Assembly: GCA_025336685.1 (NCBI GenBank)
Contig: GCA_025336685.1_4717.1
From: Escherichia coli
GTDB lineage: Bacteria > Pseudomonadota > Gammaproteobacteria > Enterobacterales > Enterobacteriaceae
DNA: 64,000 bases
Strand: one strand, 5' to 3'
The notes beneath the pieces were generated by a model. The model ran no database searches. It was given only the letters and a program-made list of their open reading frames with translations, and was not told the DNA's origin. Each line of letters opens with the position of its first letter. Within the stretch, counting starts at the first letter, position 1. The position numbers and the translations under genes are program-made. Shown piece by piece: positions 337 through 55,287 of the stretch.

Positions 337-546
337 TTACGGTAGGATTTCTGCGCCCGTCGGGCCTGCCTTACGAGCTTCCAACGCACCAAGGTCGTAT
401 TTCAACGTCAGCGTATCGTTGGTGGTAAATAGGTTGTGGTAAGTCGAAATCAGATCGGTAACCTGTGCGCCTACGATCTCGTTCATGTCGAAGGCAGAAC
501 CTTGACCATCATCAGCACGAACGATTTTGTCGCCAGCAGAGACCAT
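337..546 (-). CDS. small hypothetical protein (69 aa)
   Basis: ORF track; ATG start; stop abuts start of next minus gene; separate from 616-1221 (in-frame stops between them). Confidence 0.4.
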   Translation of the reverse strand: MVSAGDKIVRADDGQGSAFDMNEIVGAQVTDLISTYHNLFTTNDTLTLKYDLGALEARKAGPTGAEILP

Positions 547-615
547 CCCAATTTCAGAAATAACCGCGCAGTACTCTTCAATTACCCGGAGAGTTTAGCC
601 ACATTGAGATATTCG

Positions 616-1221
616 TTAATATCCTGATGGTGTCCAGACCAAAGAGACTCCAGCTATAATCGTAGTACTTCCGGTCGCTACCAGAATTCCTGTTGTTGGA
701 ATATCCGGTCGGGGCGGGTTGAGGTTCTTGTCGGTCGGATGCCATTCGATAGTCTGAGCAACACCATCGATGTACTTGGTATATCGCATGGAGCGGACAA
801 CGTTATCGAAATCGATGCGACGACCGTAATAACAGATGTACTTTTTACCGTTTTCCAGCGTCTCAATACGACGTAACCCAAATCTAGCACGTTCGTCCGT
901 GGTCAAATCGTTACCAACTTCACGCATCACGAAAGGTTTGATTTTCCATGGTGAAAGATCGCTTGCTTCGTGAGCGATCGGCATCGAGGAAGGGATGCCG
1001 TTAGCGTTGCGGATGAATTCGTGACCTTGGTTGCCGATACAGAAGTAACGTACAGCAGGATTACCCTCGGGGTAAATCTTTGATTGAATCTGAAGCTTTT
1101 CGTTCAAGGTGCTGTGTTCTTCCCACGCATGAGGAAGACCGAGCGTAAGGTTCGTTTGTACTTGACCGCCGATAATCGTACGGACGATACGATCGGTAGC
1201 ACGGATTTGTGTAGAAGCCAT
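616..1221 (-). CDS. hypothetical protein (201 aa)
   Basis: ORF track; ATG at 1221; tight spacing with upstream gene. Confidence 0.7.
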   Translation of the reverse strand: MASTQIRATDRIVRTIIGGQVQTNLTLGLPHAWEEHSTLNEKLQIQSKIYPEGNPAVRYFCIGNQGHEFIRNANGIPSSMPIAHEASDLSPWKIKPFVMREVGNDLTTDERARFGLRRIETLENGKKYICYYGRRIDFDNVVRSMRYTKYIDGVAQTIEWHPTDKNLNPPRPDIPTTGILVATGSTTIIAGVSLVWTPSGY

Positions 1222-15057: not shown

Positions 15058-17280
15058 TCAGTTAGTCTGAACAGGCAGCTTGATGTTTTCGGTGTAGACC
15101 TTACGCAGGTTCACAACGTTAATCAGACCCAGCAGCGGGCAGTTGTTAACGAAGCGGCAGCGAGGCTGAACCATGGTTTCTTTAGAAACCTGACCGTTAC
15201 GGGTAACCTGAGCAACAGATACCAGTTCCGGTACGTACAGGAACATACCGAAGGTCAGCGGATCCGGAGAACCCTGGATACCACGAGACAGGGTCACGAA
15301 GATCTTATCACGCAGCAGAACGTTCGGGTTATCTACAACCACGAAGTTGAAGCTTACACCAACGGTACGGAAATCACCATCGGTCTGCAGGAACTGCGGG
15401 ATGTAGTTGTCAGTTGCTACCACGCAACGCGGTTTCTCATCAGCGTTGGAAGACAGCAGCTGCAGAGCTGGCTGATAACCAGACTCGGAGTACATGCGAT
15501 ATGCCATCTCACGAATCACGTTCATGATCGCAGCGGACACTTCAGCACGACGTTCTGCAGTGGTGGTGCCCTGAACAGATTTCGCCAGGTCCAGATTGAT
15601 TTCTTCGAACCACGGACGGATCAGGTAACGACCGAAACCTTCGATCTGGATGTCACCGAACTGACGGAAGCGAGAGGTCGCAACCGCTTTCAGTGCATCT
15701 TTGTAGCTGAACAGTTTCTCAACCATCAGGTTGTCGAAACGTGCGTTAGCAGCTTGGATCAGAACGTCCAGGTCAGCAGCGTTTTCTTCCCAATCCAGCG
15801 GACGAGGAATGGAGAACGGAGCCAGCAGGCCGATTGCATAACGCTCTTGCTTCATGTTGAAGTCAAGGTGTTTACCACGTTCACGACGGTTGCTGTTGTT
15901 ACGGCGAATACGCAGTTCGTAACCAACCAGTTTGAAGCTCAGGTCGTCAGCCAGGTCTTTAAATTCTTGGCTCTTACGCGGCTGTTCGATGTTGTCCTGA
16001 TCAACCAGGCGATACAGTTCAGCGTTAGCACCGTTAACACGCAGACCTGCTTTCTCTACGTTGGAAGAACCGTAAACTTCGATAGCCAGCTGAGCAGCAG
16101 ATTTCGCATCGATGATGTCCTGCAGCGCTTCGGCTTTCGCACCTTTAACGTCAACGGTGTTCTCATCAACGAAGATGGAGTGGGTGTCGAACGCCAGGGT
16201 CATTTTGCGGAAGTCGCCTTCCAGGGATTTCTGGAAACCGTTGGTAATCAGACCGGATACGTCGAACGGAACGTAAGAGGTCTTGCTGTGCTTGGCTGAT
16301 TTGATTTCCACCAGGATTTTGGTCAGCGTGATCTGAGCATCCAGCGCATCGGTGTTGTCGCTGTAACCGTTAGCCAGAATGCTATCGTCTTCAGCGATAC
16401 CGATCATGTCGATCAGTTTATCAACAGCCAGGTAAGACGTTTTGTAAGTTACGCCTTTAATCTCGATGTCGCGCGGAGCAACGATAGTTTTGTCAACGAA
16501 GTACTGCGCGTTAGCATCGTCGGCACGATAGATCGGATGCAGATCGGTCACGTCGTTGGACAGAACGTCGTTGTACATGAACGCATCCAGCAGCGGACGA
16601 CGTACCCAATCAGCCGGAGTACCGTCAGCGTTACGACGCAGGTGGTTGAACACCAGCGGACGACGGAAAGATACGTCGTAACCGATCTGGTTCGGAGCCA
16701 GAACGATGGTGTTGTACAGTTCGTTACCCATGCGGCTCAGACGAGAAGCCTTCACGTTGAACACAACGGAGTACGGCATCATGTCACGCAGTTCTTTCTG
16801 GTCGTAGGACAGCTGAACCAGTTCTTCAGATTCGCAACCGCAGGAATCAGCAGCCATCATGACGAAGTTAGAGCTGTCAACTTCACGGCCAGACGGAGTG
16901 GTGCTGATGTTCATGGAACGTGCTTGTTTAGCATATTCTACCGGGTTGCCATGAGCCAGCATGATCAGTGCTGCTGCACGAGCCTGCTGTGCGTTCATGG
17001 TGAACAGCTGTTCTTCAATACGCTGCTTCTCTTCCGGAGTGGTGGTTTCGAAGCCCAGCATGGACAGAACCGGTTCTTCTGCTTTACGGATGTCGCTGCT
17101 GAAGCTCTTAACATCCATATCGTTAACCAGTTTGTCCATGGATTTGAAATCAACCTTAGAAGCAGATTCCATAGACAGGAAGGTGTTCTCCAGACCTTTG
17201 TCTGCTGGTTTGCTACCATTAGCGGTCAGGAACTGGCGAGTGGCCGCGACCTGTTGGCTAAGAAGGGTTTTATCATTCAT
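15058..17280 (-). CDS. candidate major capsid protein (740 aa)
   Basis: ATG with AAGGA SD; codon usage sharply optimised (CTG, CGT, GGT, ACC, AAC) relative to neighbours; size fits jumbo-phage capsid proteins; N-terminus has SME|S-type motifs; function by inference only. Confidence 0.85.
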   Translation of the reverse strand: MNDKTLLSQQVAATRQFLTANGSKPADKGLENTFLSMESASKVDFKSMDKLVNDMDVKSFSSDIRKAEEPVLSMLGFETTTPEEKQRIEEQLFTMNAQQARAAALIMLAHGNPVEYAKQARSMNISTTPSGREVDSSNFVMMAADSCGCESEELVQLSYDQKELRDMMPYSVVFNVKASRLSRMGNELYNTIVLAPNQIGYDVSFRRPLVFNHLRRNADGTPADWVRRPLLDAFMYNDVLSNDVTDLHPIYRADDANAQYFVDKTIVAPRDIEIKGVTYKTSYLAVDKLIDMIGIAEDDSILANGYSDNTDALDAQITLTKILVEIKSAKHSKTSYVPFDVSGLITNGFQKSLEGDFRKMTLAFDTHSIFVDENTVDVKGAKAEALQDIIDAKSAAQLAIEVYGSSNVEKAGLRVNGANAELYRLVDQDNIEQPRKSQEFKDLADDLSFKLVGYELRIRRNNSNRRERGKHLDFNMKQERYAIGLLAPFSIPRPLDWEENAADLDVLIQAANARFDNLMVEKLFSYKDALKAVATSRFRQFGDIQIEGFGRYLIRPWFEEINLDLAKSVQGTTTAERRAEVSAAIMNVIREMAYRMYSESGYQPALQLLSSNADEKPRCVVATDNYIPQFLQTDGDFRTVGVSFNFVVVDNPNVLLRDKIFVTLSRGIQGSPDPLTFGMFLYVPELVSVAQVTRNGQVSKETMVQPRCRFVNNCPLLGLINVVNLRKVYTENIKLPVQTN

Positions 17281-17429: not shown

Positions 17430-17834
17430 TCACAAACGACGCAGGCGATAATGGATGGAACGATTGGTGCAATATGAACGGAACAGCGGCAATTGCGCAA
17501 CTTCCGCAAGACTCATATTAATTCGCAGGTGTTCAATAACGGCGCTGTAGTTATCAGCAATACGATCGCTCAATAACTCTTCTGCCAATAAAGGAAGACA
17601 ATCGACAACAATCGCGATCACATCCTCATTAACATAACGCACCCGAACACTCAACGGACGTTTGTCTGGGTTGTAAGTTGGATCCGCCAAACGACGTTCA
17701 ATATCACGCGGATAGCTCGTCAGTAAATGGTAATAACCATTGTCATAACGATTGATGTACTCACACAGCACACCAACGTTCTTCTCTGGCGGTAAACCTG
17801 TTTCGTCATAGTGGATACGCAAACATACCACCAA
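17430..17834 (-). CDS. hypothetical protein, C-terminal ORF of a possibly frameshifted gene (134 aa)
   Basis: ORF-track start is TTG; overlaps 17806-18051 in another frame; no in-frame ATG near the 5' end. Confidence 0.45.
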   Translation of the reverse strand: MVVCLRIHYDETGLPPEKNVGVLCEYINRYDNGYYHLLTSYPRDIERRLADPTYNPDKRPLSVRVRYVNEDVIAIVVDCLPLLAEELLSDRIADNYSAVIEHLRINMSLAEVAQLPLFRSYCTNRSIHYRLRRL

Positions 17835-18051
17835 GCAGGTTGTTAAGATGGACCGCAGGGTTCGCTTGTTCGTGTTCTTTCGTGATGAAGAAAGGCACGT
17901 TCTGGGCCGCGAAATAAAAACCTACATCATTGGGCGATAGTATGCCGAAAAGACTTTTAGGATCCAATAACACCTGTAAGTCATCACGCGCATTTCGAAT
18001 AATCGCGTGTTCTACCCAATTCGGAACGACGAGATATCGGAGTTCCTTCAT
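17806..18051 (-). CDS. hypothetical protein, N-terminal ORF of a possibly frameshifted gene (81 aa)
   Basis: ATG start; 3' end overlaps the 5' end of 17430-17834. Confidence 0.45.
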   Translation of the reverse strand: MKELRYLVVPNWVEHAIIRNARDDLQVLLDPKSLFGILSPNDVGFYFAAQNVPFFITKEHEQANPAVHLNNLLGGMFAYPL

Positions 18052-18090: not shown

Positions 18091-19701
18091 ATGGACCCAA
18101 AACAGATAGCCATTAAGATTATTACGTTACTGTTTCGTAACGCACAATTGAACCATCCCGATCCCAGTACGATCGACCATGTTAAATCCGTCTTAGATAA
18201 AGTCGAACCCCCGAAAAACCATCTCGCTACGGACATAGATAGAGAGGTTTTCAACAACCTGATGAATACCATTCATTGGATGTTGGAACAACCGTTATCG
18301 GAACCTTTCGACAAACAACAGTTGTTACAAAGGATACGTTTAGATTGCCTTGAGCAAAGCAATCTTTACGAGATTCTTGCCGACGGACTGTACGATATCG
18401 AAGACGATGCTCATATCAGTAAGGTCTGTTCGCTTTATTACAACGAATTGCGTAACCTGATTACCCGCCGTCGTGTTTTCGAAACCTTTAGAAACACGTA
18501 CATGGATATCAGTAACGGGCGACTTGGGGATAAAGAATTTTTCGACGCGATGGCGAATTTGAAATTATCGCTTGACAGTATCGAAATGGATACCGAAAAT
18601 CCCGAAGAGATGTCGTGTATGGTTGATGGCTTTATTGCTGACAGCGAAGACGATATCGAGAAAGTCGAACGTATGTTCGTTAAAGCGATGGAACGTAACA
18701 GTCCTGAAGGTGGGTTTGTAACCGGCTGGCAAGGTTTTAATAAAATGTTGGGGTCGGTCGGCGTTTTACGTCGCGGTACCTTAGGACTGATTGGTGCGAT
18801 GCAGCACCGAAATAAATCGGGTGTGTTGTTAAAACTGTTCACGCATCTGGCATTGTACAACAAACCTCATTTCTTTTTTCCGGAGCGAGCAAAGAAAGCG
18901 TTACTGATTCATTTGTCAACAGAAAACGAAGTAGAAGAAAACACGCTTCAGATATACAAGAACATGCGAGAACAGGAAACAGGCGAATATGTCGATATTC
19001 GTAAGATTGACCCTCGCGAGGCATCACGTTATGTGTTGAAGGTGTTCAACGATGCGGGTTTCTCTGTTTGTATGCGTCGTGTTGACGGGATGAGTTACAA
19101 ACAACTCGCTAATCTCATCGACCATTTCGAACGCATGGGTTATGAGGTCATGGCGTTGTTCATTGACTATCTGAAAATGTTCTCATCGGAAGGGCTGGAT
19201 AGAAATGGACCGACCGGCGCATGGCTCCAAGAACTCTTCAACAAAGTTCGTAACCTCTGCAGTGTTAAACGTATTTTAGGTATGACCGTACACCAGCTGT
19301 CATCCGACGCGAAGATGCGTGCACGTGACGGTAACGATGAAGAGTTTGTTGACCAAGTCGCAGGCTTAAGTTACTGGGATGGTTGTAAAGGGATTGACCG
19401 TGAGATCGATCTTGAAGTGATTGTTGATATCGTTAAGGAGCCAGGTAAACGTCAAAGCTGGCAGGTCTTTGCGTTAGGGAAAGACCGTCAACCGGATAAC
19501 GGTTCAACGAAACCTGAGGATAAACATTTCACAATGCCATTCCAAACCATCGGGATGCTTCCTGATGATTACGGTAAGAAAGCAGTATACTGTCGTAAGG
19601 TTGGTGGACAACCAGTCTCCGAGGGAGGTAAAGGTCCGTGGAACAAGTTCGATGAAAACGCAGCACCAAGTAATGAATTACAATTTGATTTAGAATTTTA
19701 A
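18091..19701 (+). CDS. DnaB-like helicase homologue with atypical P-loop (about 536 aa)
   Basis: ATG at 18091 with AGGA upstream; P-loop-like GAMQHRNKSG, Walker-B-like LFIDYLKMF, H3-like GMTVHQLS; assignment by motif only. Confidence 0.75.
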   Translation: MDPKQIAIKIITLLFRNAQLNHPDPSTIDHVKSVLDKVEPPKNHLATDIDREVFNNLMNTIHWMLEQPLSEPFDKQQLLQRIRLDCLEQSNLYEILADGLYDIEDDAHISKVCSLYYNELRNLITRRRVFETFRNTYMDISNGRLGDKEFFDAMANLKLSLDSIEMDTENPEEMSCMVDGFIADSEDDIEKVERMFVKAMERNSPEGGFVTGWQGFNKMLGSVGVLRRGTLGLIGAMQHRNKSGVLLKLFTHLALYNKPHFFFPERAKKALLIHLSTENEVEENTLQIYKNMREQETGEYVDIRKIDPREASRYVLKVFNDAGFSVCMRRVDGMSYKQLANLIDHFERMGYEVMALFIDYLKMFSSEGLDRNGPTGAWLQELFNKVRNLCSVKRILGMTVHQLSSDAKMRARDGNDEEFVDQVAGLSYWDGCKGIDREIDLEVIVDIVKEPGKRQSWQVFALGKDRQPDNGSTKPEDKHFTMPFQTIGMLPDDYGKKAVYCRKVGGQPVSEGGKGPWNKFDENAAPSNELQFDLEF

Positions 19702-21215: not shown

Positions 21216-22118
21216 TTAGAAATTATTGCCGAACCGGTTATGGTTGTATGGTTGGTAGTGTCCGTAATTGCCTGGGAAGCCACCATACGTCGTAGGCTCC
21301 GGTTTAGGGACTTCCATAATCGGATTTTTAGAATTGATCGCCATCACGTAAAGGGTTACGGGTGATGCTGCGTGGCCCATTTCGACGACCACACGGCGGA
21401 TATAATCAATGTATGCTGTTATTGCAGGCGTCAGTTTGTCTCCTTCGGTAGTTATAACGGTGCCGTCGGAAAGAATCTCACGAACCGCGCACCATTTACC
21501 AAGATGAACTCCTTGCTGCGGCTTTACTCCAGCAGAGATAGAGAGATAGGTATCGTACGTCGTTTGATGATACGGATGACTATAAATAGATTCCGCTTTG
21601 TTTTCGTCTTTCCCTAAGTACTCGCCTTGCTTAGGAGTATGAGTTGATATCATATCGGTATTTTCCACGAATGTCTTTCCTTCGAGTTGTTTGATTAATC
21701 GTTTAACCGATTCAGTTATGTTGTTGTGTCTAGGGATCAGCTTTAAGTAAACAGTCGGTAACTGGATTGTTGACCCATCACTACTGCGCGGATAAGATAA
21801 TTTGTAAAACTGTTCAAAAATCCGCCGTAACGCTTCGTTGTCTGAAGTTGCCAATTTAACATAGGAGCATCGTCCTTTAGCATTGGGATTGTAGAGAAGG
21901 AGAATAACGTCTTCGTCAGTACGTGTATCCTGAGGATGACAAGCGATGTAGTGAATGGGAATAGCCGTATCTTTTTCGTCTCCCGGTTTGATAGACAATG
22001 AAAAATCATGAGTTTCTTTTAACGTTCGTAACGTGCAGGATGCGTCGTCACTATTAAGTAAGAACACACCGAAACGCACGCTTTCGTATGCTGACGGGTC
22101 GCGTATTAATAAGGTCAT
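21216..22118 (-). CDS. hypothetical protein, tandem paralog family with HP.H.TYD.YL motif (about 300 aa)
   Basis: ORF-track start 22196 is TTG; ATG at 22118 has AGGAG SD at 7 nt; shares HPYHQTTYDTYLSISAGV with 22204-22977. Confidence 0.8.
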   Translation of the reverse strand: MTLLIRDPSAYESVRFGVFLLNSDDASCTLRTLKETHDFSLSIKPGDEKDTAIPIHYIACHPQDTRTDEDVILLLYNPNAKGRCSYVKLATSDNEALRRIFEQFYKLSYPRSSDGSTIQLPTVYLKLIPRHNNITESVKRLIKQLEGKTFVENTDMISTHTPKQGEYLGKDENKAESIYSHPYHQTTYDTYLSISAGVKPQQGVHLGKWCAVREILSDGTVITTEGDKLTPAITAYIDYIRRVVVEMGHAASPVTLYVMAINSKNPIMEVPKPEPTTYGGFPGNYGHYQPYNHNRFGNNF

Positions 22119-22203
22119 GTTCGGCTCCTTGATTACGATAAGGATGATTGCGGTTTTGTGGTGCTGGTAGGGCCCTAAACAAAGGAACCCTACCAATATT
22201 AGG

Positions 22204-22977
22204 TTATTCAGGATCGGCGTAGAAATGGTGAGGATAGCCGGAGTACGATCCTGCGTTACCGGCTATGGATTCTTTCTGGGAATCGACGACGAGCGCATAG
22301 AACTGTCGGGAATTTGTTAGCGTTGAGAAATAAGCGGAAAGGACTTTTTCATTCAACGCATCGCAAGGTAGACAGGTGCGACCGCAAAACGTAACGATAC
22401 GGCCGTCAGGATAGATCTCACGAATCATTCTCCACTCACCGATATCCACTGGTGATGGTGCTGCTACACCACCTGTTATCGTTAAGTAACGATCGTACGT
22501 GGTATGGCATTCAGGATGAATATAGATCGGCTTGTTCGTTTCGACAGGTTCCGAAGTGTCTCGACGACTAAGGAGTTCAACGACTTCAAGATAAATCGTT
22601 GGTAGATCGCGGAGAATACCGGTGTTACGACGTTTCTTTGTGATTCGCGGACGAATCTCGTTAAGAGCGTATTCGAGCTTACGTTCAGCTTCGTACGCAT
22701 CGAGTTTTATTAGGTGGCCCGGTTCATCGGAATGATCCTGAGTTATGTAAACGAAATACGTGTTGTCTTTTGCAGCGCGAAAGATTCGAGCGACCTTAAA
22801 TGTTTCTACAGTGCGATAACCAAGGCGCGATTGATTTTCCACAGGAGAAAATATCCAATGTCGTCCTTCGTCCGCCCCAACAATTTCGTTGAAACTATCC
22901 GTTTGTTCTGGGACCTGGTAGTCAGCCATTAATGTATCAAGAGCGTCATCGGCCAGTTTGGTGTAAATATCTGTCAT
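22204..22977 (-). CDS. hypothetical protein, tandem paralog of 21216-22118 (257 aa)
   Basis: ATG at 22977 with GAGGA SD; HPECHTTYDRYLTITGGV motif. Confidence 0.8.
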   Translation of the reverse strand: MTDIYTKLADDALDTLMADYQVPEQTDSFNEIVGADEGRHWIFSPVENQSRLGYRTVETFKVARIFRAAKDNTYFVYITQDHSDEPGHLIKLDAYEAERKLEYALNEIRPRITKKRRNTGILRDLPTIYLEVVELLSRRDTSEPVETNKPIYIHPECHTTYDRYLTITGGVAAPSPVDIGEWRMIREIYPDGRIVTFCGRTCLPCDALNEKVLSAYFSTLTNSRQFYALVVDSQKESIAGNAGSYSGYPHHFYADPE

Positions 22978-34353: not shown

Positions 34354-35643
34354 TTATGCTTTTTCGGTCGCTGCGTTGAAGTATTTCGCAGCAGCAAATA
34401 CAGCATCCGCATACTGACGTACAGAGGCACGGAGGATCTTAGTTCCTAATACAGAGCTTAAACGAGCCATTTCTGTTACAGCTGTGATATAAGGACGTAC
34501 GGTTTCACGATCAGCCTCAGGTAACTTGTCGAGCATTTCGCCCCACTTCGTTTTGATCTGCATTCCGTTGAGTTTAGCGTCTCGTCCTACAGAGCGCGCC
34601 AAACTTTCAACTTTATGCAAATACGTCGGTTCCACCATACGGAATGCCTTCAGATATGCAGTCAATGCGCTTTTCAGCTCATTCCCATCGTGGAAAATAT
34701 TCGCATTTTCGATTTTATCTGTTACGGTGTCAACAACTTCAATATGAACATCCTTCACCAAAGCACATGCTTTAACGACATCCTTCTCTTTTTCTAGCGC
34801 ATCCAACCCTTTAACGACATATTGTTTTCCACCACTTTCTGGAAGTCTGAACGCCCTCAGTGCGGCTTTAGTGGCCTGAAGATACTCGTCTAGGACACGA
34901 TCAAGCGTTGTTAAATCAGTTAGGACATTAATGTCGTAGTTGATATCGCCGATCTTAGTAAATAAGAAATCTGATATCGTCGCACTTGCAGCCAGTTGTT
35001 CGATATGTTTGCTAACGGATGCCGCATCAACAGATTTTGCGTTCGGGAACATATTAACCATATTCCCGGTAGGCTTCTCTAGTTGTTTGATCTGACGTTC
35101 CCCTTTATTGACTTCGGATGCAATTTTGGTGATCTCAGCATAAGCCAGAACGAGATTCTTGAACAACATCTGGAACAGTTTGAACAGTTGCTCAGCAATA
35201 TTTGCAATGATTACCCAAACTGCGTATAACGCTTGTGCTGCGCGTTCTTTAAAGCCTTCCAGTACGATAGCCTGTCCTTCCACTAATTTATCATTAGCCT
35301 GGAACATGTCTTCATCAGACATCCCCAGGTTTGCTGCTGATGTCGAAGCGATCTGACGGATAAGTGCGACGTCGCTCACACGTGCTTCCGAGATCGTTGG
35401 TGCGATCATGTACGCTGTATCTTCCAGCGTTGCTGAGGTACGCACTGCAATTTCAGCCAGTTCGCTGGATTCATCGATTGTCTCGTCGGTATGTCGAATC
35501 ACCAACTCAACTTCACCCTCTTCAATTTCTGCGTTAGGATCGTGTTGCTCCGTCGGAATCGTCGCGAGAAGATCTTCGGCGCTGAGCAATGCGAGTTCGA
35601 ATGCGTTTTTATTGACGTTGTCAAAAAGAGAAATACGTGCCAT
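34354..35643 (-). CDS. head-internal (inner-body-like) protein paralog (429 aa)
   Basis: ATG with AGGAA SD; VSDVALIRQIASTSAANLG and IVLEGFK segments. Confidence 0.85.
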   Translation of the reverse strand: MARISLFDNVNKNAFELALLSAEDLLATIPTEQHDPNAEIEEGEVELVIRHTDETIDESSELAEIAVRTSATLEDTAYMIAPTISEARVSDVALIRQIASTSAANLGMSDEDMFQANDKLVEGQAIVLEGFKERAAQALYAVWVIIANIAEQLFKLFQMLFKNLVLAYAEITKIASEVNKGERQIKQLEKPTGNMVNMFPNAKSVDAASVSKHIEQLAASATISDFLFTKIGDINYDINVLTDLTTLDRVLDEYLQATKAALRAFRLPESGGKQYVVKGLDALEKEKDVVKACALVKDVHIEVVDTVTDKIENANIFHDGNELKSALTAYLKAFRMVEPTYLHKVESLARSVGRDAKLNGMQIKTKWGEMLDKLPEADRETVRPYITAVTEMARLSSVLGTKILRASVRQYADAVFAAAKYFNAATEKA

Positions 35644-38461: not shown

Positions 38462-38992
38462 TTAAAAGCCCTTAAAACCCGGTGCCATAGGTTGCCCAAA
38501 CACCGCATTCAAAGTACATATGATGTCCTGGATGCCATTGTCCCAATGGAGCCAAGTACGCACCATCTCTTCGTCTGACAACGTGATATAACTCATAAGT
38601 TTACCGCTGCTTTCCAGACGTTGGTGCGAACTTAGCGACTGACGATCTGACCAGTTATCAATCAGTTGACCAGCGATCTGAACGTTCGTGTCTCGTCTAC
38701 CTGTGTGAATGAACCGCAGTGTATCACGGATAAACTCCAGACTGGTGAAGTTCAGATTTGGGTTATGGCTGTTCATTTCCACCCAGTCGGTAATGGGGTA
38801 CATCAAACGATAAAGGGTAGAAAGAACCTGACGCTCGTATTTCCAGTCATCGAGAGGAGTACCGTCGACCAGACGCTGATACAAACTAACAACGTCGCGA
38901 TCGTAGTTCTCCTGACGTTTTACGCCGTTAACCGGAAATCCGAAGAATCCGGTACCGTATAACGTTAAAGGGACGTCACGAAGTGCACTCAT
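38462..38992 (-). CDS. hypothetical protein (about 176 aa)
   Basis: ORF-track start 39124 overlaps upstream ORF by 135 nt; internal ATG at 38992 forms an ATGA overlap with the upstream stop. Confidence 0.7.
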   Translation of the reverse strand: MSALRDVPLTLYGTGFFGFPVNGVKRQENYDRDVVSLYQRLVDGTPLDDWKYERQVLSTLYRLMYPITDWVEMNSHNPNLNFTSLEFIRDTLRFIHTGRRDTNVQIAGQLIDNWSDRQSLSSHQRLESSGKLMSYITLSDEEMVRTWLHWDNGIQDIICTLNAVFGQPMAPGFKGF

Positions 38993-39465
38993 ACAGCCGC
39001 CTCTTCTTTTCGTTTGATGTCGTAACGAAGTTTCTTCAGTCGCTCTTCGTGATATTCGATCTGCTGCTGGATTTTTGGATCGTTGCCCGCATTCTGTTGC
39101 TTTTGCTTCAGTGACAAAATCCAATACTCCAACGCTTGGGCTTCTTCTTTGGCTGCTTGTAACGACGCTTCTTCACGTTCGCTGCGCCAGATGCGATAAC
39201 GGTAAATAAGCGTGTTGGTCATTTGAGTGTCGGACCATGAACCCATGCGCATCGGGTCAGTATTACCCGCGTTGTACAACCCATTACCAACACCGTCTTC
39301 ATCAGAAACCACAACATCCGGGATTTTATCCAACCCAGCAAGGATCTGTTGTTTCTGTCCACACAGCACCTCGGTGGCAATGGCGAAACCGTACATGTTG
39401 GCGGTCAGGTAAGCAATCTCGTTTTTGGTGAAGAACTCACCAAGTGCTTTATCACCACCTGGCAT
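38989..39465 (-). CDS. hypothetical coiled-coil protein, intact 3' ORF of a frame-disrupted gene (158 aa)
   Basis: First ATG at 39465; frame stays open without a start for 66 further codons upstream to 39663; codon usage optimised. Confidence 0.6.
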   Translation of the reverse strand: MPGGDKALGEFFTKNEIAYLTANMYGFAIATEVLCGQKQQILAGLDKIPDVVVSDEDGVGNGLYNAGNTDPMRMGSWSDTQMTNTLIYRYRIWRSEREEASLQAAKEEAQALEYWILSLKQKQQNAGNDPKIQQQIEYHEERLKKLRYDIKRKEEAAV

Positions 39466-40121
39466 GCTTTCGCAGATGACTGTCGCACGAAGCAGCGTAC
39501 GAGCGTAGCTAACGTAGAAGCCCAGGGACTCAACAAGACGTACCAGAGCGGCTTCTTTGAAACTCAGACCGTCGGCAGCAACATCGATTTCCAGGTTTTT
39601 GTTAACACGTTTAACAATTTCTGGAATCAGATCAACAGCATTACGTAGCGCTATGAACGTTTTCTACCCAGCTTCCAGAGCGAACGCGGGTTAAACGCTG
39701 ATGCAGATCCTTGTCAGCGAGTTTCCATAAGGCGCTTTCCCTTTTGGAGAAGCGGAGCGGATGTCTCGTAGGCGGAATCGCGGTGTTGTTGATTTCGTCA
39801 CGGATCGATTCAAGTGCGTCAGCAACACCGGCAGGTTTAAAAGCGGCTTCAAACTGCGAATGAATTCTTTAAAATCAATTGCCATGAGTGAGCAATTCCG
39901 CGCTATTTCGAACAGGTTACGTGTGTTAACGAATCTGTGGGACGTTTCCGGTACGGAGGCCTGGAGGATCGTCAGAAGATCAACCCGAGGTTGACGAACT
40001 GTTGATTTTTCCAGCTGTTTGAAGCTTACTGTGGTCCCTTGATCCAAGCTGTGGAAATAGAAGGTCACCATCTCTTCAGCTTGTCGATGATGATCAACTG
40101 CATTGCAAGGGCTTCAGCCAT
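39466..40121 (-). pseudogene. frame-disrupted 5' region of the gene ending at 38989 (at least two frame changes)
   Basis: Three minus-strand frames each carry protein-like open stretches (40121-40065, 40071-39691, about 39880-39664) separated by frame switches; ATG at 40121 lies 13 nt after the upstream stop. Confidence 0.4.
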
Positions 40122-40133
40122 GACTTTCACGTG

Positions 40134-41021
40134 TTATAGCCGACAAACGACGTCCGATTCATGCCTGATGGCTTCCTGGTTAGCCTTAGAGATGATATAG
40201 GTGGAGGCGATTGCTCCAGAAGAAGGGATCTTTGTGCTCGCTGCAGCTTTTGCGGCATTGATGCGCGCAGCATTAACAGCCTTGCGGATACCCTCTTTAT
40301 CCATACGTGAGATTCGTTTGTGTTCACGAACCAGGTCACTAAGCAGGATCATGTCGCTCCAGAAAGACAGCTCACCCGCCATCATGCGATGCCAACGTGC
40401 TCGCCAGGTGTTCTGTGGGCCGCCGATCGCTAAAATCGACGCAAGCACTTCCGCTGGTGAACTTGCAATACGCATGCTGATGTTCAATGGCATTTTCATC
40501 GTTGCCTGACCATCGGTCAGCGTCACGGTTAAGAACTTGCCGGTGACCGCGTTTGCATCTTTGTTCAGCAATTCGATCGCTGCGTCGCTGGCCCCAACAT
40601 CGAGGCTATTTTTTTGTTTCCCCAGCAGGTTGAATCCTTTGTCATCAAGGAAAACAAGGCTTTTGCTATCCGCACTTTCCAGTGCTAATTTAACAGCCTT
40701 ATCCATCATGTTAGCGTTACGGTTTGGATTCACACGACCCAGCGTTTTATCGACACTGATATTACCCACCTGCATGATGGTGTTCAACGCCAGTAAATAG
40801 AACCCGGTATACATATTTTCAGCGGTGCGCATGCAGTTGCCTAACGCATTGCGTGCGTCGCTATAATACAACTCACGTTCAAAGATCAACGGCGCGATAA
40901 CGCGTGAAGGTTGTGAGAGTTCAACCAGCGAACCTGGCTGGATAAGTTTATTAACTTCGTAGACTTTAGCGATACCGGACGCAACAACGTTAACAGCGTC
41001 GGCAATTTCTGATGCTACCAT
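40134..41021 (-). CDS. hypothetical protein (295 aa)
   Basis: ATG at 41021 with AAGGA SD. Confidence 0.8.
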   Translation of the reverse strand: MVASEIADAVNVVASGIAKVYEVNKLIQPGSLVELSQPSRVIAPLIFERELYYSDARNALGNCMRTAENMYTGFYLLALNTIMQVGNISVDKTLGRVNPNRNANMMDKAVKLALESADSKSLVFLDDKGFNLLGKQKNSLDVGASDAAIELLNKDANAVTGKFLTVTLTDGQATMKMPLNISMRIASSPAEVLASILAIGGPQNTWRARWHRMMAGELSFWSDMILLSDLVREHKRISRMDKEGIRKAVNAARINAAKAAASTKIPSSGAIASTYIISKANQEAIRHESDVVCRL

Positions 41022-41055
41022 ATTGAAATCCTTATTTACAAATAAAGGAAAGAAA

Positions 41056-41265
41056 ATGTCTAATTACTACGACCAAGCTATTCAAACCATTCAGGAAGAT
41101 AATGCGTCGTTAACACCCGAAGCTGTGGAGGCAGCGGGCAATGCGGTGTTATTCACTGATTCAGATTGGGCAATGGCGCGGAAGAATATTCGTACCAGTG
41201 TCGGTCAAGGGACATACGGACAGTATCGCCAGACGGTATCGGAATGTGTCACCTATTCCGGGTAA
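41056..41265 (+). CDS. small ORF (69 aa), possibly the 5' part of the downstream gene joined by a +1 frameshift
   Basis: ATG with AAAGGAAAG SD only 34 nt from the divergent start at 41021; overlaps 41141-42259 by 125 nt in another frame. Confidence 0.35.
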   Translation: MSNYYDQAIQTIQEDNASLTPEAVEAAGNAVLFTDSDWAMARKNIRTSVGQGTYGQYRQTVSECVTYSG

Positions 41266-42259
41266 CAGTCCGATTCCGATTAACCGCGATCATGCCGGTA
41301 TTACCTTCTTCACACGACCTAATTTACATCTTACCGACGCGAACTTAAAACGAGATCGACGTTTGTGGTCGTTACGTACGGATAACCCTAACAGTATTCA
41401 GGCTGTTGTCCGTGACTACTTGGACCCTGTGGGTGCCAGAAAGCGGAACCATCGAGGACGTGCCATCGTCGATGAGCGCAATCCATTCATAAGTATACTG
41501 ACGGACAACCTGACGGATATCAGCGGTTTCAATGACATGGAAATGCAGGTCTATCAGGGTAAACCGGGATTACGCCAAGAAACCGTTGTGATGGCTGACG
41601 GTTCAGTGGATATGTTTCAACCCTATAACCTGAACGCGACGTTCAAGAACATCATGGGTAACCCCATCATGTTCCTTCATTATATTTGGTTGATTTACAT
41701 CGCTGGTGTGCATAATGGTGAACTGACGCCAAGCCCTCAGGCCATCATCGACAATGAAATGGATTACTGGACAAGATGTTATCGTATCATCCTGGATCCG
41801 ACTGGGATGTATGTTCGTTATATCTTCGCACCGACCGCGATGTTTCCTGTCGGGTTACCGACTGGTAATATGGCTAACTACAGCATCGATAAACCCTTCA
41901 CGCAAGATAACGAACGTATCACTATTCCATACCAAGCGGTTGGTAACAACGCATTCGATGAAATTCTGAAGGATGAATTCAATCGACTTGTCCTGATGTT
42001 CTATTACGGTGAGAACGATACCCGTACGTTCCTTGAAGATGAGGAGTTGGTACCTATTTCACCCTACGAGCGTCGAATCATGTCGTATCGTGTCGATATG
42101 TATCCATTTATTCATCCGTTGACCTCAGAGCTTCTTTGGTTCGTACCCGCTGATGCTTACAACGAATTCTATCTGGATCTTGAGCCATCGGCGTTACCAC
42201 CGGATACGTTCAGTCGCGATCTTGTCCGTACCACCATTCCGCAAAATTACGAGGGATAA
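41141..42259 (+). CDS. hypothetical protein (372 aa)
   Basis: ATG at 41141 with GGAGG 9 nt upstream; first gene of a plus-strand cluster. Confidence 0.7.
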   Translation: MRCYSLIQIGQWRGRIFVPVSVKGHTDSIARRYRNVSPIPGNSPIPINRDHAGITFFTRPNLHLTDANLKRDRRLWSLRTDNPNSIQAVVRDYLDPVGARKRNHRGRAIVDERNPFISILTDNLTDISGFNDMEMQVYQGKPGLRQETVVMADGSVDMFQPYNLNATFKNIMGNPIMFLHYIWLIYIAGVHNGELTPSPQAIIDNEMDYWTRCYRIILDPTGMYVRYIFAPTAMFPVGLPTGNMANYSIDKPFTQDNERITIPYQAVGNNAFDEILKDEFNRLVLMFYYGENDTRTFLEDEELVPISPYERRIMSYRVDMYPFIHPLTSELLWFVPADAYNEFYLDLEPSALPPDTFSRDLVRTTIPQNYEG

Positions 42260-42262
42260 TAA

Positions 42263-43378
42263 ATGAGCGTAACCAACAAAGATCTTGCTGAACAGCTCAA
42301 TCGCTATATGCTTTCACCCATTGAAATGCAGGCTGTTGCAAGCGATATGATCCGTTTGGCTTCCGATGGTGAGTTAACCCTGGTTGACCCCAGCTGTCCG
42401 TTTGTTTATCTGCTGGAGGTTGCAACGGCGACGGCTGCGAACCAGAACGCGCGGGATGAATCCCGTGTTCGCGAACTGTATCCGAAACTTGCAACCAACT
42501 GGAGCCAGCTCTATCGTTGGATGTATGACGAGTCGTACGTCGGACGTTTCGCAATGCCGGGTAAAACGGAAATCATTTATTCGTTAGGGTATCAGGAAAT
42601 CCTCGATCGTGCTGTAGAGATTCCAAACACCGCCGCATCCGATGATTTAAGCCGTTCTTACAGCCGTAAGTTAGTGATACCACGTACGACGGTGTTTACG
42701 GTAGCCGGAATGGATTTCGGGCTGCATTATCCCATCGAAATCCAAGTGCAGGCGCACGACCAGATACGCGTTGTTTATAACACTGATAACATCAGCCCGC
42801 TGCAAACCTTGGAGAGTAACCAAGTTGAGTATGGTGTTGTTCGTGTAAAAGCGGGTAAAGTGTTGGTGATGCGTATCCCACTGTTCCAGTTTAAAACGCT
42901 GGTAAAAGATGTGCCGTTTAACAGCGTTCACGGGATGAACAGCAGCATTACCTTCGAAGATCAGTTTTACCATTGTCGTGCGTACATGTCGTCGGATAAC
43001 GATACCTGGACGGAGATAGCGACAACCCACAGCCAGCAGATCTACGATCCGTTAACACCGACCATCGCGTTACAAGTAGAAGGGAACAAACTTAACTGGC
43101 GTGTTCCTGAAATTTATTTGTCTCAAGGTACGATGGATAAAAGCACCATTCGACTCGAGGTGTTGACGACGAAAGGGAAAATCAGCGTCGACCCGTCTGA
43201 TTACGACGTGACTGATTGGAAAGATAATTACATCGATCTGTCACCAAAAGCCGAACAGAAATACAGTGCGCCGCTAAGTGCGTTCAACATTAAAGGGATT
43301 TATAGTGAAGGGGCGTTGTCGGGTGGACGATCTGCGTTAACATTCGAGGAACAACGTGAACGCGTTATGGCGAAGTGA
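42263..43378 (+). CDS. hypothetical protein (371 aa)
   Basis: ATG with GAGGGA SD; 3-nt gap to upstream gene. Confidence 0.85.
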   Translation: MSVTNKDLAEQLNRYMLSPIEMQAVASDMIRLASDGELTLVDPSCPFVYLLEVATATAANQNARDESRVRELYPKLATNWSQLYRWMYDESYVGRFAMPGKTEIIYSLGYQEILDRAVEIPNTAASDDLSRSYSRKLVIPRTTVFTVAGMDFGLHYPIEIQVQAHDQIRVVYNTDNISPLQTLESNQVEYGVVRVKAGKVLVMRIPLFQFKTLVKDVPFNSVHGMNSSITFEDQFYHCRAYMSSDNDTWTEIATTHSQQIYDPLTPTIALQVEGNKLNWRVPEIYLSQGTMDKSTIRLEVLTTKGKISVDPSDYDVTDWKDNYIDLSPKAEQKYSAPLSAFNIKGIYSEGALSGGRSALTFEEQRERVMAK

Positions 43379-44712
43379 ACAAAACCGGAGTACCGATCAC
43401 GGGAACACAGGTAGAGCTGGTGCTTCAAGATGCGGGTTATGGGATGGTAACCACTATCGACAACGTAACCAATCGTTCGTTCCTGGCAACCCGAGATTTA
43501 CCGCAATTGAGCGACAGCGTGCCGCAAGCCGGTTCGTTGATGGGGTCTTTCTATACTTCAGCCGCAGCGTTGGTGAAAAGTAAGTTTGTCGCCGATAACG
43601 GCGATCGTATCACGATTAAACCGGACTGTCTGTATCGCGACAGTAACGGAAGTATCGCACTGTTGTCGGACGATGAAATTGACCGTATTAATGCAGGTAA
43701 CTCTGATGCGAAGTTGAACGCGGTAAACAACGCCATGTTGTTTTACAGCCCGTTTCATTACGTGTTGGATGCGACAAGCGATTTCGACATTCATGCTTAT
43801 TACCTGGATGCTCCTAAGATCGGCACACAAGCATTCCTCGACGCGAACGAGACAATCCCGTTAACCGCTATGGTGACCGGATACCGTCTGGATCGTATCG
43901 CTGAAGGATATCGTCTAAGCCTCATTGTAGAAGGTAACGACGCATGGAAGGCGCTCGACGATAAAAACGTGCACGTGCAGCTGGGGTTCAATCCGCGGGG
44001 TGAGGGTGATTATGCGACGATGTTAGCATCACCGACAACCGATGAACAAGGTCGTCGTTTGTTCACCTTCGATATCACCACGAATTATGATTTCACGCGA
44101 ATCCTGGCCGATGATTCCACGGCGTATGAACCATATATCGCATTGACCTCTTTCTCGATGTATGAATCGACACCGCGGGATTACTGGGCATCACTGCAGC
44201 AGTATTTGGAAATCTTCCATGTGGTGACGGATTATGCGCCGGAAGATGTCGACGGTATTTTACACAGTGCTTCCGATAATTACCTGGTTAAGAAACTTAC
44301 GCTTCAAAATGGGTATTGTTTCTACCGTGAACGTCTCACCGCAACCTTTGGTTATGATCTGGATGGTCTTTGGATGCGCTCTCGTACGGTAGCCTCGGAG
44401 ATTACGTATAAACGTTACACCGAGAACATTCCGTGGGTGTATGAAGAAGATATTCCAGCGACGGATGAGACCGGTTCGGTTATCATTGAACAAGGTGATG
44501 ACGGTACGCTGTCAGTTAAATACCTGCATCGTAAAGGTGACCCGAAATTAAACAGTGATGGAAGCCAAGCCTATCGTTATCTGAAAGGCGACATCATGAA
44601 AGATAATTACGGTAATCCGATCCTGTCGATGAACGTGAAGTTCTGCGTAGCCTGGACATGTTCTTTATTGATGCGTCGTATCTGCTTTAGCGAACGATAC
44701 GGACGTGATTGA
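43375..44712 (+). CDS. hypothetical protein (445 aa)
   Basis: GTG start overlapping upstream stop (GTGA); start uncertain. Confidence 0.8.
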   Translation: MNKTGVPITGTQVELVLQDAGYGMVTTIDNVTNRSFLATRDLPQLSDSVPQAGSLMGSFYTSAAALVKSKFVADNGDRITIKPDCLYRDSNGSIALLSDDEIDRINAGNSDAKLNAVNNAMLFYSPFHYVLDATSDFDIHAYYLDAPKIGTQAFLDANETIPLTAMVTGYRLDRIAEGYRLSLIVEGNDAWKALDDKNVHVQLGFNPRGEGDYATMLASPTTDEQGRRLFTFDITTNYDFTRILADDSTAYEPYIALTSFSMYESTPRDYWASLQQYLEIFHVVTDYAPEDVDGILHSASDNYLVKKLTLQNGYCFYRERLTATFGYDLDGLWMRSRTVASEITYKRYTENIPWVYEEDIPATDETGSVIIEQGDDGTLSVKYLHRKGDPKLNSDGSQAYRYLKGDIMKDNYGNPILSMNVKFCVAWTCSLLMRRICFSERYGRD

Positions 44713-45257
44713 GTATCGTAACACGATTCCTACGCAGCTTATCGGAGTGGATCAAGAACGATATCATCACATTCAGGAATTTCTGTTATGAGGAAACAGA
44801 GATTTCACTGTATCCTAAACAATCGTTGGGGTATGTGGATGTTATTGTCGAAAACGGATTGGAAACAACGCTTCCTGCCGCTCTATCGTTCAACGTGACG
44901 CTTTACTTACCAGCTAAGCAATACGCGGATTTGGATCTCCGTCAAGTCCTTCAAGCGATGGTATCGAAAGTCATCAACGAATGCTTAACGTCCCGTACGG
45001 TGGCTAAAGCAGAAATGATCGCGATGATTCGTGAGGAGGGTGGTGACGACATCCTTAACGTTGAAATCGATGATTTTGGACCAGGTAAGAACCTCAGTGT
45101 TTATACTGCGAAGAACGATGGTGTTCGCTGCGCGGTGAAGAAAGAGCTTTATGTGAAAGCGGATGGTATCTTGTCCGTACGTGAAGCGATCGATGTAAGT
45201 TTTGTGAAACATGCACAAAGCAACAGTTCGGCATTAGCGCAAGGCCTTCGTGTCTAA
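44709..45257 (+). CDS. hypothetical protein (182 aa)
   Basis: TTG start overlapping upstream stop (TTGA); no in-frame ATG until aa 88; start uncertain. Confidence 0.65.
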   Translation: MSIVTRFLRSLSEWIKNDIITFRNFCYEETEISLYPKQSLGYVDVIVENGLETTLPAALSFNVTLYLPAKQYADLDLRQVLQAMVSKVINECLTSRTVAKAEMIAMIREEGGDDILNVEIDDFGPGKNLSVYTAKNDGVRCAVKKELYVKADGILSVREAIDVSFVKHAQSNSSALAQGLRV

Positions 45258-45319: not shown

Positions 45320-48112
45320 TTATCTTACGTTGCTGCTATTCTGCTGTTCGCTGAACCAACAGTACACCTTGAGATCGGTACCGTATTTCAATGCGATATA
45401 CGCATTCAGTGCGGCACAGAACAAAGACGCGAATGCCCATATCAGTGAAGGATCAACATCTTCCGTTACCACCCGGGGAGTATTATCCGGTTCCCATGAT
45501 GGAGAACTGTCCATGAACGTCGTGTACCATTCCCGCCGTTGTTCTTCAGTGGTAAAGTCACTATGAGGCTCCAGCGCTTCTTTTGCCAGACGTCGATATT
45601 CGAACACATACGTTGCGAAAGCCGATGAGTTACCAGATTCGCCTTCATAGTTCGGATCCACCGCACAACAGAGTTCTGTGGAATTTAACAAAGCAATCGC
45701 TTGTATGATGCTGTCGGCAGTGCCTGCACTATAGAGCTCGATAGACCGCGAAAGCTTTTCACAGAACGTATTTAACGCGGTAGGATTGGACACCTGAAGG
45801 TCGAGGCCTAATGTCCACGGATAGTTACTGAACACACCCGTAAACCGCGGCATAACACCCAACAGATGTTGTCCGATTACGGCACGGTTATAAACAGCCC
45901 GGTTATAGACTTGAAACGCAGCCTCCAAGGCTTGGTTATAATGACGACGAAGTTCATCACGCGAGTTGCGGAATCTGTTTGCCGCAAGACTTGTGGCTGC
46001 GACGCTACAAACATCGTAATCGGTGGACGAGAGCACGGTTTCGTTAAGATCGAACGCTTCCTGTTTCAATGTTCCGCTAACCGCTGTCGCTTCGCTGTTT
46101 GCTTTATCGACAACAGTACTCAAAGCGTTGATGTAACGTTTAGCTCGGACCTCCAACCATTGTGCGATGCCGAGAATATCCACCGCAGCTTTAGCAAGAT
46201 CGCGGGCGTTCACGATTTCGTTCTTCAACGCACCTAAACCTTTATTCTCAGGCGAAGAGGCTTGTTGACGAATCATGCTGTTCAACATGGTAAGCAGATT
46301 ATCCAACTCATGCCCACTGACCTTGTTACGCGCATCGGTAACTGGTCCTTGCAGGAATTTACGGCAACCGTCGTTGTATCGAATCAGTTTATCCACATCG
46401 ATAGATTCGTTCGTGGATTCCTTGAACTGATCCTTCAATTCTTCACGGTAGTCATGGATTTCACTTGCGAGATTATCGATAGTGATGCCGTTATGTCCAA
46501 GAAGAACTTTATTGAAGTTACCTTTCTCGAATGCAAGAGCAAGACCTTCACGAATCTTAGCGAGTTTATCCTGATCGAGTTCGCGACCGTTCGATAGCTC
46601 TTTCACTTCCGAGCTGATTAGTGCCGCAACGTTACCCAGATTGTCGGTAACCCCTTTGAACGCTCCCGACCAGATCGTTCCTGCTCCAGCGTATTTCGCA
46701 ATGGTCTGAATACCGACGGTGTGCAACGACGCTAAACGTTTCTTTGTGCCTTCGGTAAGCAGAGCGTCTTTAGCTCGCGTAAGTTGACTGTTATTCGCTT
46801 CCGCCTGCTGAATCGCTGCTTTCGCACTTCCATTACGCCAGCTCTTAACCAGCCAATCAACCAAACGTTTTAGGATATTGACGGTGTATTCCATTGTCCG
46901 CCGTAACGTTTCCCACGCGCTTTCTGCGGTATAGATGCCGTACCCTTCCATCTTCGTTGGGTCAAAGAAACCTTCCTGCACGAGATCAGTACGTGTGTAG
47001 CCATCAGCAGCTTCTACTTCCGCCTGGGTTTTATCCCAGAAGTCGTCGCTCTTTGCAGCAACCGCTGTATCTTTAACGTCCAGGATGATCTGACCAACCG
47101 TTTGTGCAAACAGCAAGGCCGCACGTACCGATTGTGCGAACATCCGCTGATATTTGATTCGAACGCATTGCATCTGGGTTAGCAGATTCAGTTGTGCGAT
47201 CCCATCCAAGGTGCTATCCTGAGCAAGCCCTTCGGCTTTAGCGATAACCTGTTTTACACGTTCAGCGACATCACCGTACTGCTGGCAAACATCCCGCAGA
47301 ATACGTGCCGCGAAGACCCCGGTACCGATATAGTTCAATAGGTCTTTTAACGACCATTCGGTCGGGCAATCGGTCGGCGCAATAGGGAGTAAGCAACCAT
47401 CACCGTCCATGAATCTCTCTAATGCGCTAATATCCTGATTTTCTACGCTCATGGGGATATCGACATCAGCCGCTTGCGGATCCAGCATCTGTTGTAGGAT
47501 GTTGGTATCGGCTTGTACAAGCGTCACAAGCGCTTGGCTGTGTGCGATTATTGGTAACGCAGGTGACCATACTGCAGCAAGCTTGTCGGCGTGACGTTGA
47601 ATGGCGTACCCCATATCCTCGATCACATCGGGATGCTCGATAACCCCCTGAAGCGTTTGATGTAGCTCACTGAGTTGCTGAGACAGATCGACCATCATGG
47701 TGTTGAAGGTTTCGCCATCCTCTTTATGGTTGTCCAGACGCTCGAGTTCATGTCGAAGCAATGTGACGAGCTGTCCGCTGCCTTCTTGCTTCAGCTTGCT
47801 TTCCATTAACGTAATGGCTTTATCGACGATCCGACACGCTTCATGAAAACCGGTTGTGGAAGGAAGCTCTGTCCATAACGCCAGCGGTTTACCGTCAAGG
47901 GCTTCCGACATCGATAACGAAAGCATAGACAGTTGTTGACGTGATACTTGCTGTTCACGGTGTAATGTTTCTTTTAACGCCAGGAGATCGTCAAGAAACG
48001 CGCCGTTAAGGGTGGTCGTACGTGGTGTTGAATTAATACCGTCAGTTAACGATTCAAGCACCAGGAGACCGTTATCAGCTGAAGAGAGTCCCGCGGCAAG
48101 ATATTTGTTCAT
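45320..48112 (-). CDS. large hypothetical virion-associated protein (about 930 aa)
   Basis: ORF-track start 48169 is GTG inside the hairpin region; ATG at 48112 has GGAG SD; N-terminal LLVLES motif. Confidence 0.85.
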   Translation of the reverse strand: MNKYLAAGLSSADNGLLVLESLTDGINSTPRTTTLNGAFLDDLLALKETLHREQQVSRQQLSMLSLSMSEALDGKPLALWTELPSTTGFHEACRIVDKAITLMESKLKQEGSGQLVTLLRHELERLDNHKEDGETFNTMMVDLSQQLSELHQTLQGVIEHPDVIEDMGYAIQRHADKLAAVWSPALPIIAHSQALVTLVQADTNILQQMLDPQAADVDIPMSVENQDISALERFMDGDGCLLPIAPTDCPTEWSLKDLLNYIGTGVFAARILRDVCQQYGDVAERVKQVIAKAEGLAQDSTLDGIAQLNLLTQMQCVRIKYQRMFAQSVRAALLFAQTVGQIILDVKDTAVAAKSDDFWDKTQAEVEAADGYTRTDLVQEGFFDPTKMEGYGIYTAESAWETLRRTMEYTVNILKRLVDWLVKSWRNGSAKAAIQQAEANNSQLTRAKDALLTEGTKKRLASLHTVGIQTIAKYAGAGTIWSGAFKGVTDNLGNVAALISSEVKELSNGRELDQDKLAKIREGLALAFEKGNFNKVLLGHNGITIDNLASEIHDYREELKDQFKESTNESIDVDKLIRYNDGCRKFLQGPVTDARNKVSGHELDNLLTMLNSMIRQQASSPENKGLGALKNEIVNARDLAKAAVDILGIAQWLEVRAKRYINALSTVVDKANSEATAVSGTLKQEAFDLNETVLSSTDYDVCSVAATSLAANRFRNSRDELRRHYNQALEAAFQVYNRAVYNRAVIGQHLLGVMPRFTGVFSNYPWTLGLDLQVSNPTALNTFCEKLSRSIELYSAGTADSIIQAIALLNSTELCCAVDPNYEGESGNSSAFATYVFEYRRLAKEALEPHSDFTTEEQRREWYTTFMDSSPSWEPDNTPRVVTEDVDPSLIWAFASLFCAALNAYIALKYGTDLKVYCWFSEQQNSSNVR

Positions 48113-54138: not shown

Positions 54139-54292
54139 CCTTTGGGATAACCAGGGTATCGAGGCGTTGGACCAGAAAACGAACTATTCTGACATCCCTA
54201 TTCGTTTGGCGGCGTCAGTTTGAAGATTTCAGTTCTAACCCTAAACGTATCTGCGACAAACTTTCTTCGTTTATCTTAACCGTGGGGAAGTC

Positions 54293-54712
54293 ATGGGATG
54301 CACTGCCGACGACATGACCCAGGAAGAAGATAAGTGGGTTATCTCACGAACCGGACATATCGTCACATTACCGTGCGATCTCATGGCAGACAACGGCATT
54401 CATCTCTTCTGGGATATGCCTAATCTGAGAAGTTATATCCGTCTATTCGTTGCAGACCTCGACATAAGCAGTTCATATCCAAATGGGCAGATCCTGCTCA
54501 ATCTATCCAGAGCCTGTGTTTTCCGTGAGCTATCACGCATTGAGGGCGTCTCTGACTATCAATTCAGGAAGTTAGGTATCAACTTTATTACCGGAGGTAA
54601 AACGAACGCTGTAGACTTCTGTAGAATCGTTTATAAAGCACCATCGATGTTTGAACTCTTAGAGCATTTCGATGCGACGCGTCCGAAAGAGGAAGCGCGG
54701 ACCATCGAATGA
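54293..54712 (+). CDS. family-B DNA polymerase fragment carrying motif A (139 aa), separated from the exonuclease ORF by frame changes
   Basis: VADLDISSSYPNG matches pol B motif A (DxxSLYPS); no motif B or C before the stop at 54712. Confidence 0.55.
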   Translation: MGCTADDMTQEEDKWVISRTGHIVTLPCDLMADNGIHLFWDMPNLRSYIRLFVADLDISSSYPNGQILLNLSRACVFRELSRIEGVSDYQFRKLGINFITGGKTNAVDFCRIVYKAPSMFELLEHFDATRPKEEARTIE

Positions 54713-54777
54713 TTCAAGTGATACGATAAGGGTCATCCCGTTGATCCTCGCCTAACAAAAAGAAAACGCATGCGAAG

Positions 54778-54809
54778 CCCCTCCCCCTGGCGGAAGCCGG
54801 AGGGAGGGG
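54778..54809. terminator. GC-rich hairpin with GGAA loop followed by TTTTATGTGTTTTTAATT; bidirectional terminator
   Basis: Between stop of the polymerase fragment and stop of 54828-55277; T-rich tracts on both sides. Confidence 0.55.
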
Positions 54810-54827
54810 TGGAGGTTTTATGTGTTT

Positions 54828-55277: not shown

Positions 55278-55287
55278 TGATGCTCCT

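Follow-up and report, generated by a model that had tools for sequence, protein, structure and literature searches.

A one-base insertion splits the gp42 capsid gene of a Goslar-like jumbo phage in an Escherichia coli assembly and is probably a consensus error

The window analysed here, a 64,000-nucleotide stretch of DNA from the Escherichia coli assembly GCA_025336685.1, carries two small overlapping open reading frames (ORFs) that are the two parts of one phage gene (Table 1). By alignment and gene position, the locus is the orthologue of gp42 of Escherichia phage vB_EcoM_Goslar, a protein of the inner vertex-binding complex of the capsid. Its reading frame is interrupted by a single extra C, which we regard as probably a consensus or base-calling error in this one assembly. 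The two ORFs correspond to residues 1-79 (100% identity) and residues 80-206 (about 98% identity) of the protein. Because both pieces match consecutive parts of one protein at such identity, the two-ORF pattern is, on the alignments, not due to chance.

Table 1. Positions in the window of the gp42 locus, its neighbours and the other genes with broken frames
Feature	Position	Strand	Basis or remark
Whole locus: Goslar gp42 orthologue by alignment, 206 aa once repaired, broken by a 1-nt insertion	17430..18051	-	98% nt identity to Goslar 45811-46431, one gap
Upstream ORF: gp42 residues 1-79, then out-of-frame P, L and TGA at 17808-17806	17806..18051	-	tblastn, 100% identity to 18051-17815
Downstream ORF, +1 frame: genuine gp42 residues 80-206 from CAC 17813-17811	17430..17834	-	ORF list, tblastn
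Lesion: plus strand GG (coding CC) vs a single G/C in relatives	17813..17814	.	pairwise and 13-sequence alignments
Major capsid protein, Goslar gp41 orthologue, 740 aa, intact; downstream, same strand	15058..17280	-	98.5% aa identity over 740 aa
DnaB-like helicase, Goslar gp43 orthologue, 536 aa, intact; divergent neighbour	18091..19701	+	98.9% aa identity, aligned to 18091-19698
gp32 orthologue	340-1221		small indels 569-670
gp60 orthologue	38992-39885		frame-broken
gp61 orthologue	about 39918-41021		frame-broken
gp62 orthologue	41056-42256		frame-broken
gp63 orthologue	42263-45254		three frames: ORFs 42263-43378, 43375-44712, 44709-45257
DNA polymerase gp68 orthologue	52969-54457		indels 54095-54262

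The upstream ORF (18051 to 17806) starts with ATG and encodes 81 amino acids with the C-terminus ...AYPL*, the DNA ending in ...GCG TAT CCA CTA TGA. The downstream ORF encodes 134 amino acids when read from TTG 17834 and stops at 17432-17430. Whether it is taken to start at TTG 17834, GTG 17831 or TTG 17822, its codons ahead of CAC 17813-17811 are those of gp42 residues 73-79 read out of frame. The tblastn alignment of the downstream fragment accordingly covers gp42 residues 69-206 at 92%, with the residues before 80 out of frame.

An earlier note on this DNA had described these two ORFs as one gene split by a -1 frame change, leaving the strand unstated. Both ORFs are present at the coordinates it gave and both lie on the minus strand. 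The overlap, put at 28 nt, is 29 nt (17806-17834), and the direction of the frame change has to be reversed: (18051-17834) mod 3 = 1, which puts the second ORF in the +1 frame relative to the first. The extra base being in the DNA, a ribosome would need a +1 (or -2) shift to read through it, not -1. The TTG at the 5' end had also been named as the sole start; GTG 17831 and TTG 17822 are in frame as well, and the NCBI annotation took TTG 17822. The note was right that the downstream ORF has no in-frame ATG for about 100 codons, the first standing at codon 107, and its joined protein of roughly 210 amino acids comes to 206 when the pieces are joined at the true break.

Pairwise alignment of the locus to Goslar contains exactly one gap, the window reading ...GCGTATCCACTATGAC... 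vs ...GCGTAT-CACTATGAC... in Goslar. On the coding strand, the window has ...GCG TAT CCA CTA TGA where its relatives have ...GCG TAT CAC TAT GAC..., placing the extra C at 17814/17813 and breaking the reading frame after codon 79. A pairwise alignment with the Salmonella-derived contig L007 also finds a single C at the lesion site. Deleting one C from the window restores a 206-aa ORF in which 204 of 206 residues are identical to Goslar gp42, the only differences being D93G, which recurs in a protein of a Salmonella contig (P0003), and S127N, which is found in no other sequence examined. Apart from the insertion, only two substitutions in the 622 nt of the gp42 copy are private in the 13-sequence alignment described below, and the copy contains no other stops; as far as this alignment goes, the rest of the gene is without secondary decay.

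In Goslar, gp42 is a single 621-nt CDS (Goslar_00042 / HOV27_gp042; YP_009820727.1) encoding 206 amino acids. The window copy is longer by the one C only, which bears out the earlier view that one gene has been split by a frame change. The Goslar gene lies between the divergent gene for the DnaB-like helicase gp43 and the gene for the major capsid protein gp41, on the strand of the latter, and the gp41-gp42-gp43 arrangement is shared by the window, Goslar and 11 other contigs. The relatives' major capsid protein contains PF25620 (PhiKZ_MCP) and their helicase PF20307 (divDNAB).

We aligned the window copy with 12 relatives: Goslar, two Salmonella-derived contigs and nine contigs from isolates or metagenomes. 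In all 12 the 621-nt gene is uninterrupted, and only the window has the extra base that makes the gap column. Searching among 5.8 billion proteins yielded one cluster at 90% identity, with 127 members. Of the 15 members listed, 13 are 206 amino acids long; the other two are the fragment from the window itself and a 109-aa fragment on a 2-kb contig. Searching the same set with a profile added neither members nor names. Six distant homologues (27-48% identity) emerged when 1.84 billion representatives were searched exhaustively with HMMER, each of them one protein of 167-222 amino acids that spans both halves. An uninterrupted ORF of about 170-220 amino acids is present in all relatives examined and absent in the window copy. 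We also looked for homologues existing as two genes with a conserved TTG or GTG start and found none among the relatives; because the homologues are single genes, not two, the reading of one split gene stands. The broken ORF is a matter of the integrity of the window copy, not of its ancestry.

gp42 is an already known, structurally solved capsid protein. Goslar gp42 is represented in the PDB by entries 11fg, 11mk and 36za ('PVC Protein gp42', 206 aa), and a near-identical relative of the window copy, the representative of the cluster, matches 11fg_E, 'PVC Protein gp42', with E = 5.7e-139. In the cryoEM study of Goslar, gp42 together with gp59, gp65, gp66 and gp192 forms a five-fold 'vertex binding complex' docked to the inside of the penton at every non-portal vertex, and PhiKZ gp119 is reported as the gp42 homologue in the same complex (bioRxiv 10.64898/2026.04.21.720040).

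Predicted with a 7-sequence alignment, the AlphaFold model of gp42 has a pLDDT of 68 and a pTM of 0.60; the single-sequence prediction (pLDDT 32) is of no use. The model has two better-predicted halves joined by a low-confidence linker at residues 76-89, and the break falls in this linker. In a Foldseek search of the PDB with the model (pLDDT 68), the second-best match is the PhiKZ capsid chain 8y6v_J (probability 0.69, 17% identity), a weak similarity with a TM of about 0.3 that is weakly consistent with the published homology to PhiKZ gp119. G-alpha proteins, also among the Foldseek matches, have a TM below 0.2 and are noise, leaving 8y6v_J as the only plausible match. Pfam has no family for gp42, and PHROGs gave weak matches to families of unknown function: phrog_11665 (E = 0.0016 for the 81-aa fragment and 0.012 for the full-length protein) and phrog_32896 (E = 0.15).

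The whole window is collinear with Goslar at 92-98% nucleotide identity, window base 1 corresponding to about Goslar 28372. By this collinearity, we assign the window to a Goslar-like nucleus-forming jumbo phage (Goslarvirus, Chimalliviridae). The phage collection searched holds no matching record besides Goslar, and the locus matched nothing when it was searched against complete E. coli genomes and against plasmids. A preprint on 'persistent virulent phages' reports that 59 Goslar-like genomes occur inside bacterial isolate assemblies, where the phages would persist without lysing the host, while Goslar is the sole phage isolate; for E. coli assembly GCA_025336685.1 it tabulates a contig of the Goslar cluster, 240,999 bp long, with an empty field for relative coverage (10.1101/2024.12.31.630880).

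Some parts of the window differ from Goslar in other ways. At 21248-22973, a 1.7-kb segment without a Goslar counterpart stands in place of the small gp47 and carries the minus-strand ORFs 21216-22196 (326 aa) and 22204-22977 (257 aa), neither of which matches a Pfam family. In the Salmonella relative L007 this spot is occupied by another gene, of 210 amino acids, so the locus is variable. Downstream of the polymerase, window 54457-55780 compared with Goslar 81186-83861 has no counterpart of gp69 (NUMOD1/HNH homing-endonuclease-like) or gp70, a difference that suggests presence and absence of a mobile endonuclease. The gp56 orthologue (34354-35643) is 75% identical to Goslar vs 95-97% for its neighbours, and the 34-35 kb bin in which it lies contains 96 private substitutions; gp56 varies fast and belongs to the paralogous cluster gp54-gp58, in which the internal-protein domain PF12699 is found in gp58 and weakly in gp54.

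Broken frames are not confined to gp42. The earlier note had counted three other frame-disrupted loci in the window, which is true but too few: comparison of Goslar proteins with the 64-kb window shows that at least six other genes have a disrupted frame or internal stops (Table 1). The structural study assigns gp32 and gp63 to the baseplate, as wedge and spoke proteins, identifies gp62 as the initiator of the tail tube, and describes gp60 and gp61 as proteins that are packaged and injected (bioRxiv 10.64898/2026.04.21.720040). We compared the region from 39.6 to 44.8 kb with nine relatives (Goslar and eight isolate or metagenome contigs). None of these nine has any of the about 20 small indels, most of them deletions of 1-2 nt, that the window shows between 39654 and 44747. 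Fourteen deletions or insertions of 1-2 nt fall within about 500 bp (39654-40159), and isolated indels are found at 41219 (-2), 43375 (-1), 44625 (-1), 44685 (+2) and 44747 (+1). In the gp60-gp63 region, intact genes of 300, 368, 401 and 997 amino acids are called in the eight contigs, and Goslar is annotated with the same four. From these comparisons, the indels at 39654-44747 look like consensus errors, and they presumably underlie the other loci that the earlier note had counted.

The patches in gp68 and gp32 were compared with Goslar alone. The gp68 orthologue switches frame at 54095 and has six more small deletions within about 170 bp (seven indels in 54095-54262) and three internal stops. 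In the gp32 orthologue there are six small indels, whose net length is zero, together with two internal stops; what is left is an ORF of 201 amino acids (616-1221) vs 294 in Goslar. Private substitutions in the indel patches are only slightly above background density. A by-eye check of the private indels for Dam and Dcm motifs found that a few adjoin GATC or CCTGG, in numbers too small for any claim.

We favour a consensus error as the source of the extra C because a replicating phage could not carry all the lesions in the window; a phage whose DNA polymerase, tube initiator and baseplate wedge are all broken could not multiply and so leave behind a full-length 241-kb contig. Because dense patches of 1-2-nt indels sit on a near-background density of substitutions, they point to a noisy consensus rather than to divergence. 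Likewise, with so many private frame-breaks in indispensable genes, any one private indel in this contig has a high prior of being an error. The extra base itself is missing from the 12 related sequences, which are of phage, isolate and metagenome origin. The probable origin of the error would be the draft E. coli isolate assembly with its Goslar-like 'persistent phage' contig. The real phage would then make a normal full-length gp42, and the 81-aa and 130/134-aa 'proteins' would be annotation artefacts. Against an error, the insertion at 17813 stands alone, some 22 kb away from the main noisy region, and the stretch around it is otherwise clean (3 private substitutions per kb); it could be the one real change among artefacts.

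The extra C may instead be a real, recent and strain-specific frameshift mutation, defining a phage lineage with a gp42 pseudogene, although we consider this, the main rival explanation, unlikely. Such a lineage would make a 79-residue N-terminal piece followed by two junk residues, perhaps with a C-terminal piece produced by reinitiation at TTG or GTG, and its capsids would be without the normal subunit of the vertex-binding complex. The base is in the deposited sequence, the C-terminal fragment has been annotated as a protein by NCBI, and the sequence around the insertion looks clean. GGTGG lies 5 nt upstream of TTG 17822 and could be a chance ribosome-binding site, and with the break located in the low-confidence linker of the AlphaFold model, the two fragments might still assemble. 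Non-lytic carriage has been reported for Goslar-like phages (10.1101/2024.12.31.630880), and a phage persisting in this way might for some time do without a virion protein. However, the insertion is private to one assembly among the 13 sequences compared, the out-of-frame part has no secondary decay, and a phage that replicates could not truly have all of the contig's other private frame-breaking indels, which hit indispensable genes.

It is improbable, though conceivable, that the private indels as a group are real and that the contig represents a degenerating Goslar-like jumbo phage persisting in the E. coli isolate and losing its virion genes. Those lost would include the vertex complex, the baseplate and the tube initiator, and the contig would capture a 'virulent' nucleus-forming phage in the course of its decay to a resident element that is no longer productive.

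With a consensus error as the preferred explanation, the biological weight of the split is small: gp42 is known and solved, and its interruption here is most likely a sequencing artefact. The practical value is that of a quality flag, since patches of indel errors break at least seven genes in 64 kb, and the other frame-disrupted loci in the window are to be read likewise as errors. The fragment has already entered RefSeq, which serves as a warning. MCT7382368.1 / WP_260974220.1 (130 aa, locus tag N5V64_19165) is identical to the downstream ORF read from TTG 17822, including S127N. Under the name 'hypothetical protein [Escherichia coli]', WP_260974220.1 (window 17430-17822, minus strand) is the C-terminal fragment of a broken phage gene, a database artefact mislabelled as bacterial. 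If the change were real, the gp42 subunit of the vertex complex would be dispensable or workable as two pieces, a result of modest interest to capsid structural biologists.

Transcriptional slippage was rejected, there being no homopolymer run at the site and no conservation of the break. A functional split, in the form either of a programmed +1 ribosomal frameshift yielding full-length gp42 or of a fission into two separately translated subunits, is very improbable, and we rejected both forms for want of conservation and of a suitable motif. The overlap does end at UGA (CUA UGA C), loosely resembling the stop-stimulated +1 shift of prfB, and an SD-like GGUGGU lies upstream. However, the break is conserved in none of the 12 close relatives and none of the six distant homologues, all of which have one ORF, and the downstream piece, with its first ATG at codon 107, has no such start near its 5' end.

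In prfB, the SD lies about 3 nt upstream of the codon at which the stop-stimulated +1 shift occurs. The window would likewise need a +1 shift just before an in-frame UGA, but it has neither a slippery codon, nor a correctly spaced SD, nor conservation of the arrangement in homologues. The sequence UAU CCA CUA UGA C is not slippery, since P-site CCA and CUA cannot re-pair as CAC and UAU in the +1 frame, and some 14 nt separate the SD-like element from the CUA codon downstream of it, against the 3 nt or so of prfB.

Among capsid proteins, PhiKZ gp119, a component of the capsid vertex-binding complex (PDB 8Y6V), resembles gp42 in sequence below the level of detection, and an HMM search of the PDB with gp42 gave no match to the 8Y6V chains. 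Goslar gp42, conversely, occupies the same gene position as the window copy at 98% nucleotide identity, and the window differs from it by the extra C after codon 79, D93G and S127N.
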